Of a stretch of DNA of 64,000 nt, positions 26,542 to 61,122 are shown one piece after another. The notes under the pieces are model-generated. The model did no database searches. It had not been told where the DNA came from and saw only the letters and a list, made by a program, of their open reading frames with translations. Within the stretch, counting starts at the first letter, position 1. Every line of letters starts with the position of its first letter. A program made the position numbers and the translations under genes. This DNA comes from an uncultured Parcubacteria group bacterium (lineage in GTDB: Bacteria > Patescibacteriota > Minisyncoccia > UBA6257 > 2-01-FULL-56-20), in contig CAJAQL010000006.1 in the NCBI GenBank assembly GCA_903944135.1, forward strand, positions 9,425 to 73,424, read 5' to 3'.

Positions 26542-26771
26542 CTTAAATTAAGCTATATAAATGATGCACATTACCGTTATGAGTACGAGAAAGACATATA
26601 AATCCGAGGTCTGCTACAGTTAAAATTATGCCATATTTTAATATAATTTCAAAACTTAAATACCCAAAAATGCGTGAATTCTTACGCATTGTCCATAAAC
26701 GGTCATTACAGTACAAAACGCCATTCGATGTCATCGCAAAAGCACCCAAAAATGGCAATTTGAACACAATG

Positions 26772-26842
26772 CTGGGAGGCTTGGAATCGGACCAAGATTG
26801 AGGGCTTCAAAGGCCCCTGTCCTACCATTAGACGACCTCCCA
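26772..26842 (-). tRNA. tRNA-Gln (anticodon UUG), slightly non-canonical T-loop
   Basis: Minus-strand sequence TGGGAGG-TC-GTC-TAATGGTAG-GAC-A-GGGGC-CTTTGAA-GCCCT-CAAT-CTTGG-TCCGATT-CCAAG-CCTCCCA-G. It has a U1-A72 pair and G73 (Gln identity elements), GG in the D-loop and anticodon loop cuUUGaa. The T-loop has C at position 55. Confidence 0.6.
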
Positions 26843-35767: not shown

Positions 35768-37579
35768 ATGGAGATTCGCAACATCGCTATTATCGCTCAC
35801 GTCGATCACGGAAAGACGACGCTCGTTGACGCCCTGCTTAAACAGTCGGTGGGATTCAAGCTGAAAACCGGCGCTGACAGCGACCTTATTATGGATTCGA
35901 ACGAACTCGAGCGCGAGCGCGGCATCACTATTTTTTCAAAGAACGCATCAGTGATGTACAAAGGCATCAAGATCAATATCGTGGATACCCCGGGCCACGC
36001 GGATTTCGGTGGCGAAGTCGAACGTATCATGCGCATGGTGGATGGCATTCTGCTTTTGGTTGACGCAAAGGAGGGTCCGATGCCGCAGACGAAGTTCGTT
36101 CTGCGGAAAGCGATCCAGGCAGGACACAAGATCATCGTGGTCATTAATAAGATCGACAAAGAAGGTGCGCGTCCGGAATGGGCGCTCAACGAAACTTTTG
36201 ATCTCTTTTTCGAGCTCGGCGCAACCGAAGAACAGATCGATTTCCCGGTCATCTATGCCTCTGCCGTTCAGGGAAAAGCCGGGCTCACGCCGAATCTTGA
36301 AGAAATGACCGATATCGAGCCGATTTTCGCGACCATTGTGAAATATATCGCGCCGCCGGAAAAAGGCGAGCTCGATACGACGCAGATGCTCACCGTGAAC
36401 CTCATGCACGACAATTACAAAGGCAAGGTCGCCATCGGGCGTCTGTATTCCGGCACGCTCAAGAAAGGCTCGACCGTCGCACATATTACGCGCAGCGGCG
36501 AAGTGAAGCTTGAAAAGCTGACCTCAGTCATGCTGTTCGATGGTCTGAATCGCGTCGATGTCGATGAAGCCACGGCGGGCGATATCGTGGCCATCGCCGG
36601 CATTCCGGACGTTTCGATCGGTGAAACGATCGCGGATCCGGAGTATCCTGTCGCGCTTCCGACGATCGATATCGATGAACCGACCATCAAGATGACGTTC
36701 GGCGTGAACACGTCGCCATTCCGCGGCAAAGAAGGTACCTTCACGACGTCACGCAACCTGAAGGACCGGCTCGAAAAGGAGCTGGAAACCGATGTAGCAT
36801 TGTCGGTAACACCCACCGGAACATCCGACCGTTGGGTCGTTGCCGGCCGCGGCGAACTGCATCTCGCGATCCTCATCGAAAAGATGCGCCGCGAAGGATT
36901 TGAGATCGAAGTTTCGAAACCGCAGGTCATTTTCAAAGAGAAAGACGGGAAAAAACTCGAGCCAATGGAGCTTGCGACAATTGAGGTGCCCGATGAATTT
37001 GCCGGCACGGTCATTGAGATGTTCGGTAAGCGGCTCGGCGTTATGAAGGACATGCGCGCAGATGACAATCATATTTCCCATATTGATTTTGCGATTCCGA
37101 CACGCGGCCTCATCGGCATCCGAAACAAGTTCATCACCGCAACGAAAGGCATGGGCATCATGAATACGCTTTTTACGGGCTATGAACCGTATAAAGGCGA
37201 CATCACTTCCATCCCGCATGGCTCGATCGTTGCGACCCAGGCCGGCGTTTCGAACAATTATGGACTGATCACGGCGCAGGGGAGAGGCAAACTCTTCATT
37301 TCTGCTGGCGTAGCGGTCTATGAAGGCATGGTGGTCGGTGAAAACGCGAAAGAAGGCGATGTCATGGTGCATGTCGCGCGTGAGAAACAGCTTACGAACT
37401 TCCGCGCCAAGAACGAAGGTCTTCTTGACCAGCTTGAAGTTCCTATCACGCTCACGCTTGAGGATGCGCTCGATTATATCGACGACGAAGAAATGGTGGA
37501 GATCACACCGAAGAATGTCCGCATCCGGAAAAAATATCTGAACGAAAGCGACCGGAAAAAGGCAACAAGAGAAGATTAA
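35768..37579 (+). CDS. typA: Translational GTPase TypA/BipA
   Basis: MEIRNIAIIAHVDHGKTTLVD, DTPGHADFGGEV and NKID; 604 aa with the BipA C-terminal domain. Confidence 0.9.
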   Translation: MEIRNIAIIAHVDHGKTTLVDALLKQSVGFKLKTGADSDLIMDSNELERERGITIFSKNASVMYKGIKINIVDTPGHADFGGEVERIMRMVDGILLLVDAKEGPMPQTKFVLRKAIQAGHKIIVVINKIDKEGARPEWALNETFDLFFELGATEEQIDFPVIYASAVQGKAGLTPNLEEMTDIEPIFATIVKYIAPPEKGELDTTQMLTVNLMHDNYKGKVAIGRLYSGTLKKGSTVAHITRSGEVKLEKLTSVMLFDGLNRVDVDEATAGDIVAIAGIPDVSIGETIADPEYPVALPTIDIDEPTIKMTFGVNTSPFRGKEGTFTTSRNLKDRLEKELETDVALSVTPTGTSDRWVVAGRGELHLAILIEKMRREGFEIEVSKPQVIFKEKDGKKLEPMELATIEVPDEFAGTVIEMFGKRLGVMKDMRADDNHISHIDFAIPTRGLIGIRNKFITATKGMGIMNTLFTGYEPYKGDITSIPHGSIVATQAGVSNNYGLITAQGRGKLFISAGVAVYEGMVVGENAKEGDVMVHVAREKQLTNFRAKNEGLLDQLEVPITLTLEDALDYIDDEEMVEITPKNVRIRKKYLNESDRKKATRED

Positions 37580-37656
37580 TCCTCATTGCACGCCAATATC
37601 GAACCCCGCCATCAGGGTTCGATATTGATCAAAAACCGCATCGTCTCATTTGGCGA

Positions 37657-37712
37657 AGCGGTTTTTCATATGGAAAGAGGCTGTCCCGTAATGGAACAGC
37701 CTCCGTTTTTTG
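37657..37712. terminator. Terminator hairpin after typA (copy 1 of a duplicated 45-nt element)
   Basis: catatggaaagaggctgtcccgtaatggaacagcctccgttttttgttttt. Confidence 0.65.
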
Positions 37713-37729
37713 TTTTTGTCCGGAGAGGA

Positions 37730-37987
37730 TCAGGCCAATTTGACCAGCTTCTCCTCAAGGGAAGAGACATCCTCGCTCCGGGTCTTGATGAGTGTTTTGA
37801 GCTCTGCGATCCGATCGCGATCCACGCTGTCAAAATGCCCGTCATTAAGGAGAAGTATAGATCCCAGGTTTTCCCTGAGACTGGCTAATCCAGCCTGAGC
37901 CTCCGCGAGCTTCTCCTGGATGATCTTCTTCTGCTTCTTGTCGGCATAATACTGCCGCACTTTTCTGAACAAACTGATCAAACCCAT
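37730..37987 (-). CDS. Hypothetical 85-aa coiled-coil protein (cassette 1)
   Basis: The ORF lies between a consensus sigma70-like promoter (minus strand) and a hairpin. Confidence 0.45.
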   Translation of the reverse strand: MGLISLFRKVRQYYADKKQKKIIQEKLAEAQAGLASLRENLGSILLLNDGHFDSVDRDRIAELKTLIKTRSEDVSSLEEKLVKLA

Positions 37988-38031
37988 GACATCCTCCGGA
38001 AAACAAAAAAATAACTACGTAACCCTATTAC

Positions 38032-38063
38032 CTTTATAGCATGTTATATAATATTTGTCAATA
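38032..38063 (-). promoter_or_regulatory. Sigma70-like promoter TTGACA-17-TATAAA (copy 1 of a 32-nt conserved element)
   Basis: Minus-strand reading tattgacaaatattatataacatgctataaag. Confidence 0.55.
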
Positions 38064-38075
38064 TAGCATCATATT

Positions 38076-38122
38076 CATATGGAAAGAGGCTGCCCCGTAA
38101 TGGAACAGCCTCCGTTTTTGCC
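38076..38122. repeat. Copy 2 of the 45-nt hairpin element
   Basis: catatggaaagaggctgccccgtaatggaacagcctccgttttt, which is 44 of 45 nt identical to 37657-37701. Confidence 0.7.
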
Positions 38123-38132
38123 CGGCAAGTCG

Positions 38133-38348
38133 TCAGGCGAAGTTGGTGTCCAGCCCTTCTGCGAGCGCAGAGAGATGATCTTCGCCGGGATCGTGAAACT
38201 GCTCATCATCGTCGCATTGTTCATCCGCCTCGTTCAGTACACTGTTTGCTTCCTGGACAAGCCGCTTTTCAGCAACTGATCGGAATGCTTTTCTTGCATC
38301 CGGATTGAGCTCGTGCCGCGCATCGCTAACGTACCTTGCCGTACTCAT
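38133..38348 (-). CDS. Hypothetical 71-aa acidic protein (cassette 2)
   Basis: The ORF lies between promoter copy 2 and hairpin copy 2. Confidence 0.4.
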   Translation of the reverse strand: MSTARYVSDARHELNPDARKAFRSVAEKRLVQEANSVLNEADEQCDDDEQFHDPGEDHLSALAEGLDTNFA

Positions 38349-38387
38349 TTCTTATGTCCCTCCTCAGAGACCATGAAAACCTGGAAT

Positions 38388-38419
38388 CTTTATAGCATGT
38401 TATATAATATTCGTCAATA
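38388..38419 (-). promoter_or_regulatory. Sigma70-like promoter TTGACG-17-TATAAA (copy 2)
   Basis: Minus-strand reading tattgacgaatattatataacatgctataaag. Confidence 0.55.
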
Positions 38420-38505
38420 CCTCGTCGCAATGCTGAAAAAGATCGGCTCTTGACGACTATGGTATACTGAACGAGTCGATCTTAAATTAAATTCACATCA
38501 TCAAA

Positions 38506-39138
38506 ATGGAGGAATATCTCAATAATCTCACGTGGCGTTATGCCACGAAAAAGTTCGATGCCCAGCAAAAATTGTCGAGCACGGAAACGGATATGCTTGA
38601 AGAGGCCTTGCGCCTCTCGCCGAGCTCGTTCGGATTCCAGTTATGGAAATTCTATCGGGTCGACGATCCGGCCATCCGTACCGCAGTGAAAGATGCCGGC
38701 TACGGACAAACACAGCTTACCGATGCATCGCATCTTTACGCATTGGCATCGAAATTTGCGCCGACCGAGCAGGATGTTGTGGACTTTATAGAGTCCATCA
38801 AAACGGCGCGCGGTGTAACGGATGAATCGCTCGCAGGATATAAAAAAGCTCTCGAAAGCGCGGTCATCGGAAAACCGGCGGGGGATATCGCGGCATGGAC
38901 CGCGAAACAAGTCTATATCGCGCTTGGATTCCTGCTTGATGCGGCAGCTCAACACAAAATCGATGCCTGTCCCATGGAAGGATTCGATTCGGTAAAAGTC
39001 AGCGAAATCATCGGCGCGACAAAGGAAGGATATACCGTACAGGTTCTTTGCCCTGTTGGCTATCGCGCCACGGATGATAAATATGCCGCTGAAAAGAAAG
39101 TCCGATATCCGAAAGAGCGGATCATAAAGATAATTTAG
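38506..39138 (+). CDS. NAD(P)H nitroreductase family protein
   Basis: RYATKKFD, LSPSSFGFQLWKF and CPMEGFD are nitroreductase-fold motifs. Confidence 0.8.
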   Translation: MEEYLNNLTWRYATKKFDAQQKLSSTETDMLEEALRLSPSSFGFQLWKFYRVDDPAIRTAVKDAGYGQTQLTDASHLYALASKFAPTEQDVVDFIESIKTARGVTDESLAGYKKALESAVIGKPAGDIAAWTAKQVYIALGFLLDAAAQHKIDACPMEGFDSVKVSEIIGATKEGYTVQVLCPVGYRATDDKYAAEKKVRYPKERIIKII

Positions 39139-39157
39139 TTTTTGCTTAGTGCGAATT

Positions 39158-39197
39158 TGATATGAAAGATCCGCCAGAAGGCGGATCTTTCATATCA
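39158..39197. terminator. Bidirectional terminator (perfect palindrome)
   Basis: tgatatgaaagatccgcc-agaa-ggcggatctttcatatca. Confidence 0.7.
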
Positions 39198-39232
39198 AGA
39201 ACAATCAATCAATATCGATCGTTCTTGGATCT

Positions 39233-46501: not shown

Positions 46502-46530
46502 TTGACAAATATATAATAAATATGTTATAT
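46502..46530 (+). promoter_or_regulatory. Third copy of the conserved extended promoter (TTGACA-17-TTATAT)
   Basis: ttgacaaatatataataaatatgttatat closely resembles the minus-strand promoters at 38032 and 38388. Confidence 0.5.
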
Positions 46531-46632
46531 TTGTTCCAGCATCCGGTTGACTAAGCCGGTTTGTAAATCTGCCTTTCGGGGAGGCTATCCCCGAAGAATC
46601 CGGGTCGGCTAGGCCTGGACAGGAGAAGCGTC

Positions 46633-49275: not shown

Positions 49276-49339
49276 TTTTTAATGATACCAAAAAATCAGT
49301 TGATAGGAAATTGCGAGGATGGCCTCGCTTTTTGTTTTG

Positions 49340-49412
49340 AGCCGTTGGCCGGATTTGAACCGGCGACCTACTCCTTACCATGGAGTTGCTCTACCAGCTG
49401 AGCTACAACGGC
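49340..49412 (-). tRNA. tRNA-Thr (anticodon GGU)
   Basis: GCCGTTG-TA-GCTC-AGCTGGTA-GAGC-A-ACTCC-ATGGTAA-GGAGT-AGGTC-GCCGG-TTCAAAT-CCGGC-CAACGGC-T gives a canonical cloverleaf; CCA is not encoded. Confidence 0.9.
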
Positions 49413-52219: not shown

Positions 52220-52325
52220 AATCCCCTCCTCTCGGATCTTTTTGATCCGCTAAAAACCTATCTGCGAATTGAATTATGGCATGATATAAAATATTGTCAA
52301 ACGCCAGGCAGAGGCCTCTCGTAGA

Positions 52326-57704: not shown

Positions 57705-57949
57705 GATATTTTTATTAAAATTTTTATTCCATGGCGTGGAGATCGGCCTCAATAACACAAAACTCCACGCTGTGCCTGAGCCTTGCGGCTCCATAGCCCT
57801 TTCGAGCCATGACCCTAGACGAGTGGCCAAACGTGGAGTTTGGTATCGTCTAGGGTGTTTCGCGCCATGCCCTGATTGCTCAAAGATTTAGGCGACTTAT
57901 ATTAAGTTGTGCTTTCAATGTAACATCGTTCCGACGACTTGTTAAGTCG

Positions 57950-59286: not shown

Positions 59287-60863
59287 GCGAACTCAACGCC
59301 ATAATTTACTGCCGCGTCTCGTCGGAACGACAAAAGAACGAGGGTCACGGTCTCGACGGCCAAGAGCAACGTTGCCGTCTCTATTGCGGGCAAAAGCAAT
59401 ACAAAGTTGAGCGGGTCTTTAAGGACAGCTTCACAGGAGGCGGAGATTTTATGGAACGTCCGGCGATGGGAGACCTACTCGCCTACCTCGACAAGCATCC
59501 GCATCGGGATAATTACGTCGTCGTTTTTGATGACCTCAAGCGATTTGCCCGCGACACCGTTTTCCATTTGAAGCTCCGCCGCGAATTTAAGGCGCGGGGC
59601 GTTAAAGTGGAATGCCTTAATTACAAATTCGATGAATCCGAGGAAGGCGAGTTCATCGAAACCGTTTTAGCCGCACAGGGCGAGCTTGAGCGGAAGCAGA
59701 ATCGCCGCCAAGTAATTCAGAAGCAGAAAGCGCGTCTTGAGGCGGGCTATTGGCCTTTTTGCCCGCCGCCAGGCTATCGTCAGCCCAAAACAATGGCCCA
59801 TGGGAAGCTACTTACACCACACGAGCCAGAAGCGACGATGATAAGAATGGCCCTCGAAGGATTTGCGACAGATCGCTTCGAGACACAGGCGGATATGGCT
59901 CACTATTTGGGAGAACAAAATTTCGTCGGCAAAAGCAGAGTTCCCTTCCAGTTGGCGAATCGCTTATTGGCACGAGTTTGGATATATGCCGGATTTATCC
60001 AATATGAACCATGGGAAGTAATGAGGCGAGAAGGTCATCATCAGCCCCTCATTGACTTAGCGACCTATCACAAGATTTTGCGAAAACTCGAAGGTCGTAG
60101 CCCCATAAGGACAAGGGCGGATATGCGTGAGGATTTTCCTTTGCGCCACACCCGTATCGTCTGTAGTAACGGCCATCCTCTTACAGCCTCGTACACGACC
60201 AAAAAGAAGGGCTATAGGAAGCCTTATTATCGTTGTTCTAATAGGACTTGCCCCGAACATACCAAAAGCATCCCTGCTGAGCTTATATTGGCGCAATTCA
60301 AGGCTATGTTGCAGGAAATTCGCCCAAAGCCCCTTATTCTTAAAATCAGCGAAGCGATGCTCTATGAAAAATGGGAACGGCGCGTGGCCGAACGAGCCAA
60401 TAACGAAAAAAGGGAGGTTGGTGAAATTATAGGGATTCAAACGGAGATACGCGACCTCTCAAAGCTTGCACGAAAGGCAAGTAGTGAGCGCGTCCGGCGA
60501 GAGTATGAAAAGCAGATTGAGGAGCTTGCGGCGAAAGAGGAAAAATTAACAGAGAAAAACGATCCGGTGAAGAAGCCGAAAATCGAGTTTAGAACCGCTC
60601 TACAAATGGTGTTTGATTATCTAAAAGACCCATATACCAAGTGGGTTGAGGGCGATTTGAGCGAAAAAAATCTAGTGCTAAACCTCGTTTTTGAGGGTCT
60701 CGTTTTCTATGACCGAGGATTTGGATTTAGAACCGCTCCTTTGTGCCTTCCCTTAAGGGTTTTTGAGCATTTTACTACCTCTAAATTACAGGGTGTGGAG
60801 ACGGGCGGAATCGAACCGCCGTCTAGTAATGAAGCCAATGAGCCGTCTACGGGTGTAGTTTAA
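59283..60863 (+). CDS. Large serine recombinase (resolvase catalytic domain, recombinase domain, zinc ribbon)
   Basis: IYCRVSSERQ places the catalytic Ser in the resolvase N-domain. Long recombinase domain, Cys-containing zinc-ribbon segment (CSNGH…CSNRTCPEH) and coiled coil; 526 aa. Confidence 0.85.
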   Translation: MSELNAIIYCRVSSERQKNEGHGLDGQEQRCRLYCGQKQYKVERVFKDSFTGGGDFMERPAMGDLLAYLDKHPHRDNYVVVFDDLKRFARDTVFHLKLRREFKARGVKVECLNYKFDESEEGEFIETVLAAQGELERKQNRRQVIQKQKARLEAGYWPFCPPPGYRQPKTMAHGKLLTPHEPEATMIRMALEGFATDRFETQADMAHYLGEQNFVGKSRVPFQLANRLLARVWIYAGFIQYEPWEVMRREGHHQPLIDLATYHKILRKLEGRSPIRTRADMREDFPLRHTRIVCSNGHPLTASYTTKKKGYRKPYYRCSNRTCPEHTKSIPAELILAQFKAMLQEIRPKPLILKISEAMLYEKWERRVAERANNEKREVGEIIGIQTEIRDLSKLARKASSERVRREYEKQIEELAAKEEKLTEKNDPVKKPKIEFRTALQMVFDYLKDPYTKWVEGDLSEKNLVLNLVFEGLVFYDRGFGFRTAPLCLPLRVFEHFTTSKLQGVETGGIEPPSSNEANEPSTGVV

Positions 60864-61122
60864 CGAAAGTTAGACAGGTTTTGATCCGTAAGTGTCGCGC
60901 CAACCACAGGATCGTCGAATGGCGTTAAGTTCCCTTATATAAGACCGGCGATGGACCCAAGGAACCCGGATCCGCCGATCCCGACGTCGGTCAGCCGATT
61001 AGGCAAACGCGAACGCCGGAAGCTGCAACTTTTGTGTTGGCAGTTTAAATGATGCGACAAGTACGTCGTCGCCCACGACCCGCAAGCTCATGGAACATCA
61101 CTATCGAAGCCAGTGCGTCCCC
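60796..61122 (-). ncRNA. ssrA: tmRNA (ssrA)
   Basis: Minus-strand 5' GGGGACGCACUGGCUUCGAUAG… matches the tmRNA 5' consensus. Acceptor stem with G3·U70, T-arm GGCGG-UUCGAUU-CCGCC and 3' end CGUCUCCA (identical to B. subtilis ssrA). The tag reading frame is …CAG CUU CCG GCG UUC GCG UUU GCC UAA, giving …QLPAFAFA-stop; CCA is not encoded. Confidence 0.8.

Follow-up and report, generated by a model that had tools for sequence, protein, structure and literature searches.

Tandem paralogous small genes that each carry their own promoter and terminator are an already known kind of genomic feature, and motifs that combine both signals have been described in phages. Promoter-early stem-loops (PeSLs) are composite terminator/promoter motifs flanking ORFans in T4-like phages, where each genome has about 50 of them in hyperplastic regions and where they mark sites at which closely related phages differ by insertion, deletion or replacement (Arbiol et al. 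2010, PMC2839356; Comeau et al. 2014, PMC4122927). Phage morons, by comparison, are not expected to have signals in common between units (discussion in PMC2839356). Here, we analyzed a locus at positions 37640–38430 of a 64-kb stretch of contig CAJAQL010000006.1 (hereafter the window), in which two repeat families, a 32-nt promoter-like unit and a 46-nt hairpin unit, surround two small open reading frames (ORFs) on the minus strand. Each repeat pair brackets one ORF, encoding either 71 or 85 amino acids (aa) and termed ORF71 and ORF85, giving two tandem modules composed of promoter, small ORF and hairpin. On balance, this layout probably goes back to an ancient tandem duplication in which an entire expression unit was copied, leaving two co-regulated monocistronic genes at a fixed locus rather than a mobile cassette array. 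What sets the locus apart is that conservation is much stronger in its regulatory ends than in the coding sequence.

The coordinates of all features are collected in Table 1, where A denotes the elements of the ORF71 module and B those of the ORF85 module. The two copies of the promoter unit (CTTTATAGCATGTTATATAATATT(T/C)GTCAATA on the plus strand) agree at 31 of 32 positions, and weaker similarity stretches this repeat to 50 nt at 82% identity (38014–38063 and 38370–38419). Copies of the hairpin unit are identical at 45 of 46 positions. No third copy of either unit was found in the window, even with 11/32 mismatches allowed for the promoter unit and 17/46 for the hairpin unit, and 0/100 shuffles gave two matches for one or the other. 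An initial annotation of this DNA had placed the promoter 32-mer exactly where we find it and had given the same lengths for both minus-strand ORFs. Its hairpin repeat, positioned at 37657–37701 and 38076–38120, is likewise real, with the second copy lying within 2 nt of ours, but the first is ~9–10 nt off register.

Read on the minus strand, the promoter 32-mer consists of TA-TTGAC(A/G), a 17-nt AT-rich spacer ending in TGC and then TATAAA-G. The combination of TTGAC(A/G), a 17-nt distance, TGC and TATAAA, with a Shine–Dalgarno sequence and ATG 39–44 nt farther on, has the architecture of sigma-70-type promoters with an extended −10 element, the distance between Shine–Dalgarno sequence and ATG is suitable, and the near-consensus promoter assignment of the initial annotation is plausible in this respect. 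Transcription would start near 38382 from promoter A and near 38026 from promoter B, the latter promoter beginning 24 nt past hairpin A. Similarity between the 5′ parts of the modules runs ~18 nt beyond the −10 element; past these first ~18 nt, homology of the 5′ untranslated regions (5′ UTRs) was not significant. The promoter spacer also holds a 14-bp near-palindrome, ATATTATATAACAT. Elsewhere in the window, AT-rich spacers of a similar kind, such as TTGACAAATATATAATAAATATGTTATATT, are found in two more near-consensus promoters. One, at 46502–46531 on the plus strand, sits ~150 nt upstream of a 162-aa orphan gene, and the other lies at 52272–52303 on the minus strand; their resemblance may represent a common strong-promoter style in this genome.

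The hairpin unit folds best as minus-strand RNA, with a 12-bp stem and a free energy of about −23 kcal/mol (z −4.6 for copy B). The sole difference between the copies converts a U-A into a U-G pair on the minus strand but disrupts one base pair on the plus strand. In the two modules, the stem begins 19 and 25 nt downstream of the stop codon. Because A-tracts and T-tracts lie on opposite sides, each hairpin looks like a two-way terminator: hairpin A is the predicted terminator of ORF71 and a putative insulator in both directions, and hairpin B is the predicted terminator of ORF85. Downstream of the stem, the minus strand has only UUU (UUUCCAUAU; UUUCC or UUUCA), as opposed to T5–T6 on the plus strand. 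An Rfam scan of the region returned sub-threshold chance matches only.

For evolutionary analysis, we compared about 25 contigs from five Candidatus Saccharibacteria lineages, comprising those of the window, the L001, L003 and L008 types and L013. The order nitroreductase, ORF71, ORF85 and typA, with both promoter and both hairpin copies, is present in all of them, and in no related contig was an indel or replacement of either ORF detected. Independent assemblies of many metagenomes (JGI, ENA, NCBI and Logan) reproduce this layout. Within this fixed arrangement, promoter copies behave as orthologs and group by position; in every lineage, the −35 element is TTGACG ahead of ORF71 and TTGACA ahead of ORF85, and promoter changes specific to a lineage are not common to both copies. 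Promoter A is identical across 32/32 positions in four lineages and across 30/32 in L008. Since the promoter copies group by position, the duplication appears to be older than the split of the five sampled lineages, and their near-identity has probably been held by purifying selection. Over the same span, synonymous divergence (dS) of typA and dnaB reaches 0.87 and ordinary intergenic DNA is 63–74% identical.

Unlike the promoter copies, the hairpin copies group by lineage and thus change in concert. In the window, both contain CGGAGG...TTTCCATAT (CCATAT in both), in L001 and L003 both contain CAGAGG...TTTCACTAT (CACTAT in both copies of L001), and in L008 both miss the loop A. These at least three changes common to both hairpins suggest gene conversion between the 46-nt copies, with co-evolution with a common partner as the alternative. 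Otherwise, the 27-nt hairpin core is invariant across lineages, while the adjacent typA terminator has drifted through covarying changes. In L001 (4893–4925), L002 and L015 but not in L003–L007, the spacer separating hairpin A from promoter B carries an 11-nt tandem duplication (TATTATGATGG); it is therefore free to vary in length.

Both ORFs are protein-coding genes on the minus strand under purifying selection, as evident from ratios of nonsynonymous to synonymous divergence (dN/dS) of 0.16–0.41, reading frames that are indel-free across lineages, where the UTRs do have indels, and an excess of variable sites at third codon positions (7/8/16 at positions 1/2/3 for ORF71 and 9/13/28 for ORF85). 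Plus-strand ORFs starting inside the hairpins (MERGCPVMEQPPF...) were rejected as candidates because it is the minus-strand frames that agree with the codon-position bias and because the ATG of the plus-strand ORFs is not shared by L001 or L008. Synonymous divergence between the window and L008 was 0.2–0.3 for ORF71 and ORF85, compared to ~0.87 for the flanking typA and dnaB. Identity along the locus is mosaic, with the 3′ half of typA, for example, being 92–97% identical between L001 and L008. The low divergence of the ORFs together with this mosaic pattern suggests recombination between lineages or an extra constraint at the nucleotide level.

Close homologs of both proteins are very few and share 82–89% identity. 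An exhaustive HMMER profile search with ORF85 against 1.84 billion representatives recovered its own cluster and one spurious coiled-coil protein, and neither protein had a significant match in Pfam, NCBIfam, PHROGs, PADLOC or PDB sequence profiles. Foldseek searches against the PDB likewise gave nothing significant, with ORF85 matching generic coiled-coil hairpins only, none at E ≤ 0.001. AlphaFold2 models, built on alignments of three sequences only, predict a helical hairpin for ORF85 (helices 3–47 and 54–84; predicted local distance difference test (pLDDT) 87) and helices 3–12, 16–47 and 54–70 for ORF71 (pLDDT 74). Net charges counted from sequence are ~−10 for ORF71 and ~+3 for ORF85.

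Whether the two proteins are related depends on the kind of comparison. They had initially been described as unrelated ORFs without similarity, which holds for whole-protein searches: BLASTP produced no alignment at E ≤ 100 and hhalign a probability of 0.2%. Directed comparison, on the other hand, uncovered in-frame similarity over the last ~16 codons along with the same predicted helical hairpin. In the module alignment, the last 48–54 nt of the coding sequences agree at 34 of 48 positions, each of the two gaps being exactly one codon long (0/5000 shuffles), and the spacers between stop codon and hairpin are similar as well (13/5000 shuffles). For the corresponding C-terminal peptides, GEDHLSALAEGLDTNFA and SED-VSSLEEKL-VKLA, p was about 0.001. 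Moreover, the AlphaFold2 loop falls at residues 48–53 in both proteins, and the 14-aa length difference corresponds to a shorter second helix in ORF71. The coinciding loops and the C-terminal similarity favor a diverged paralogy of ORF71 and ORF85.

Combining these data, we propose that an ancestral unit, comprising a strong sigma-70-type promoter with an extended −10 element, a short 5′ UTR, an ORF for a helical hairpin and a stem-loop terminator, underwent tandem duplication before the split of the five lineages. The coding bodies would then have diverged beyond recognition, save for the last ~16 codons and the helix-loop-helix design, with the promoter copies being kept by purifying selection and the hairpin copies by selection and repeated short-tract gene conversion. 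Two monocistronic mRNAs of ~305 nt (ORF71) and ~360 nt (ORF85) with equivalent promoters and 3′ hairpins would result, so that the acidic ORF71 and the mildly basic ORF85 proteins would be made under the same control and at similar levels. Given their A-tract and T-tract flanks, the hairpins should also stop plus-strand transcription that reads through from typA and that, if unhindered, would continue antisense across both ORFs into the nitroreductase gene.

Several points weigh against this scenario. The outgroups lack both genes, and the single-copy ancestral state is therefore not seen. Similarity at the level of whole proteins escaped both BLASTP and hhalign, and at the DNA level it is only marginal in the first two thirds of the ORFs (p about 0.04). 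The C-terminal similarity could also have been written into unrelated ORFs by ancient conversion tracts that extended outward from the hairpin. For small charged proteins, structure prediction commonly defaults to helical hairpins, and the models derive from three-sequence alignments. Lastly, the minus-strand U-tract after the hairpin is weak (UUUCC), for which reason a consensus terminator scan did not list the hairpin.

Table 1 Features of the two-module locus and its flanks (positions in the window).
Feature	Position	Strand	Description
typA/bipA	35768–37579	+	Convergent with the modules
Bidirectional intrinsic terminator	37631–37666		A5-stem-U5; −19.3 kcal/mol, z −5.2; outside the repeat
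Hairpin unit B	37665–37710	−	Stem-loop 37676–37704 on minus-strand RNA; plus strand continues with T6GT5
ORF85	37730–37987	−	85-aa orphan; predicted antiparallel helical hairpin
5′ UTR of ORF85	37988–38031	−	Shine–Dalgarno GGAGGA
Promoter B	38032–38063	−	Predicted driver of ORF85; −35 TTGACA 38056–38061; −10 TATAAA 38033–38038
Hairpin unit A	38074–38119	−	Stem-loop 38085–38113 on minus-strand RNA, 12 bp, loop AUUAC; A-tract 5′, UUUCC 3′
ORF71	38133–38348	−	Acidic 71-aa orphan; predicted helix-loop-helix
5′ UTR of ORF71	38349–38387	−	Shine–Dalgarno GAGGAGGG; first ~18 nt like 5′ UTR of ORF85
Promoter A	38388–38419	−	Predicted driver of ORF71; −35 TTGACG 38412–38417; 17-nt spacer; TGC extended −10; −10 TATAAA 38389–38394
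Nitroreductase-family gene	38506–39138	+	Divergent from promoter A

Among the other explanations, the one that fares best holds that the ends stay identical as targets of trans-acting factors, which is compatible with an origin by duplication but which we consider unlikely. Such factors might be a repressor or activator at the near-palindrome ATATTATATAACAT and an RNA-binding protein or RNA at the hairpin loop and stem, and the two genes might then form a regulon with products acting together, for example in a heterodimeric helical bundle; we view these specific versions with the same reserve. Conservation of the promoter spacer (32/32 in most lineages) is in keeping with a bound regulator, as sigma-70 spacers normally vary freely, although AT-rich palindromes easily arise by chance and no candidate regulator was found nearby. 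Similarly, the invariant 27-nt hairpin core next to a typA terminator that changed by compensatory substitutions, and the loop deletion in both L008 hairpin copies, would fit a common binding partner, but gene conversion alone explains the concerted hairpin changes. The complementary net charges (~−10 and +3) of two proteins that are both predicted helical hairpins agree with joint action; since no other site with either motif was found in the sequences searched, however, the regulon would consist of these two genes only.

The distribution of the modules bears on cassette-based scenarios. A hairpin pattern scan of 185,579 species-representative genomes identified one genome only, an uncultured Candidatus Saccharibacteria metagenome-assembled genome, and a promoter pattern scan of a metagenome collection returned this locus only. 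Neither pattern was present in viral contigs, and the module had no blastn match in phage or plasmid collections. In outgroups with 85–94% identical TypA, different genes stand behind typA and the modules are missing from this position; the ORF71/ORF85 pair is therefore confined to a narrow Candidatus Saccharibacteria clade, where it occupies a rearranged junction. The initial annotation had interpreted the layout as a cassette array with conserved ends and varying payload. This view is not supported, given the same two ORFs in the same order in ~25 contigs of five lineages, elements that were found nowhere else in the collections searched and the lack of an integrase or transposase gene within ±10 kb. 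The comparison of cassette number and content across related genomes, which it had proposed, revealed no variation.

A tblastn search with both proteins against four outgroup loci yielded one weak match only, between ORF71 and L018:193–339, part of a 164-aa partial hypothetical ORF (28% identity over 53 aa; E 1e-4 as a single comparison, ~0.01 in the small tblastn search), which may be a distant relative or chance. In the Saccharibacteria outgroup loci L018–L021, a 256-aa gene, a Mur ligase gene and a peptidase M23 gene are located directly after typA, and L020:5858–7112 contains three other small orphan ORFs (109, 112 and 130 aa). Upstream of typA, L008 lacks the redoxin gene. The neighborhood of typA appears to be a variable spot.

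In light of this distribution, we find it quite improbable that portable promoter/hairpin ends captured two unrelated ORFs by homologous recombination within the ends, in the manner of PeSLs. Ends that are 97–98% identical around bodies without detectable similarity would be expected from such capture; yet no sharp junction is seen, and the similarity tapers off in frame across the 3′ coding ends. Hairpin A and promoter B, 24 nt apart, do form a composite terminator-promoter junction as in PeSLs (PMC2839356), but only two copies per element, at a single locus, turned up across the window, the species-representative genomes (185,579), the viral contigs and the metagenome collection, and neither a phage or plasmid match nor, within 10 kb, a recombinase was found. 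The hairpin copies exchange sequence, whereas the promoter copies show no exchange. Finally, the region downstream of typA varies in more distant relatives and the genes are orphans, but across the ~25 contigs of five lineages there is no variation in presence/absence or content.

More speculative still, and in our estimation very improbable, is a PeSL-like recombination-competent cassette system in the chromosome of a candidate phyla radiation (CPR)/Saccharibacteria member that would occasionally swap, duplicate or excise small orphan genes at this site downstream of typA, which is prone to rearrangement, and would have left the concerted evolution of the hairpins as its footprint. Chance AT-rich similarity, named in the initial annotation as a refuting outcome, or an assembly artefact can be dismissed, as the AT-richness of the promoter unit is all that speaks for it, against 0/100 shuffles with two matches, a GC-rich hairpin that is 45/46 identical and the independent assembly of the same layout in many metagenomes. 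We also rejected a dispersed repetitive extragenic palindromic (REP)-like repeat, a clustered regularly interspaced short palindromic repeats (CRISPR)-like array and an integron on the basis of copy number, architecture and the absence of partner genes. A type II toxin–antitoxin pair was rejected because there was no significant Pfam, NCBIfam or PADLOC match and each gene has its own promoter and hairpin.

The modules are embedded in a housekeeping setting with the gene order patatin, cysS, dnaB, nitroreductase, ORF71, ORF85, typA, redoxin, exonuclease, L27, uppS, L9 and others. Precomputed Pfam calls within ±10 kb contained housekeeping families only and no integrase or transposase. Between the typA stop codon (37579) and hairpin B lie two hairpins, an 11-bp stem at 37596–37625 and the bidirectional intrinsic terminator (Table 1), both of which are kept in L008 with altered, compensating sequence. 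This terminator is the first proper one after typA and the second one behind ORF85. The initial suggestion that the first hairpin copy also terminates typA is therefore not borne out: typA meets its own canonical terminator first, which has compensatory changes in L008, and the module hairpin behind it is at most a backup.

Further observations concern the other flank and the wider window. A perfect 19-bp palindrome with a 4-nt loop at 39157–39198, between the convergent nitroreductase and dnaB genes, is likely a bidirectional terminator, and the sequence of its outer arm, ATATGAAAGA, is similar to that flanking the module hairpins, CATATGGAAAGA. Positions 38226–38242 inside ORF71 form an inverted repeat of 17 nt (15/17) with 38462–38478 in the nitroreductase promoter region, where the repeat overlaps the extended −10 element TGGTATACT. 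At its 38230:38474 pair, the window has T-A, L008 and L013 have T.G and L001 has C-G, and the repeat could be due to chance, a shared protein-binding site or a long-range helix in plus-strand RNA. In addition, Rfam matches at gathering level identified a LOOT RNA (73 bits) at 57778–57894 and a tmRNA (106 bits) at 60793–61122, and tRNA genes for Gln and Thr are located at 26771–26842 and 49339–49412, respectively.

If an old duplication is indeed the origin, the locus offers a small, clean case of regulatory signals outliving the coding sequence that they served. After duplication, the promoter would have been kept by selection and the terminator by gene conversion, with the proteins diverging almost completely. 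Such a history would bear on the origin and retained co-expression of lineage-restricted small genes in reduced CPR genomes. The locus also provides two defined natural parts for Saccharibacteria, a predicted strong promoter and a compact hairpin, in a group with almost no characterized expression signals. It reveals no new class of mobile element.

Compared to known systems, the locus differs to varying degrees. WXG100/Esx-type pairs (~100 aa, with W-x-G in the turn) have only the tandem helical-hairpin layout in common with ORF71 and ORF85; neither protein contains a tryptophan or has a Pfam match. The likeness to integron cassette arrays, with short ORFs separated by a repeated hairpin-forming element, is superficial. 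Integron attC sites are imperfect 57–141-nt palindromes with R″/L″-L′/R′ boxes and extrahelical bases, whereas the hairpin studied here is a perfect 27–29-nt stem-loop (12 bp, 5-nt loop), and inspection of the repeat found no attC-like architecture. Integron cassettes are, moreover, mostly promoterless and vary in content and number, as opposed to a near-consensus promoter for each ORF and identical content in five lineages, and no IntI/Phage_integrase gene is located within ±10 kb. Bidirectional terminators between convergent genes resemble the hairpins in having a GC-rich stem with an A-tract and a T-tract, and hairpin B does lie between the convergent ORF85 and typA genes. However, a separate canonical terminator is already present there, hairpin A has no convergent gene and the hairpin core is invariant without covariation.

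Closer parallels exist with self-contained units. Phage morons are likewise promoter-ORF-terminator units of unknown function between unrelated genes, but the modules are chromosomal rather than part of a prophage and the two units have signals in common. As in PeSLs, a sigma-70-like promoter and a stem-loop occupy one short spacer (hairpin A to promoter B, 24 nt) beside orphan ORFs, each small orphan ORF is predicted to be transcriptionally self-contained and a repeated motif exchanges sequence between copies. Unlike PeSLs, the elements are present only twice each, at a single chromosomal locus surrounded by housekeeping genes, and neither variable content nor a phage context is seen. The best agreement is with tandem paralogs that have their own promoter and intrinsic terminator: the units are arranged head to tail, their 5′ and 3′ signals are homologous with similarity reaching into the 3′ coding end, the two proteins are predicted to share a fold class and all relatives have the pair as a fixed arrangement. 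Two traits depart from this model. Terminator copies are homogenized in concert and promoter copies are not, and the usual pattern is inverted, with non-coding ends that are 97–98% identical enclosing coding bodies that are unrecognizable save for the last ~16 codons.

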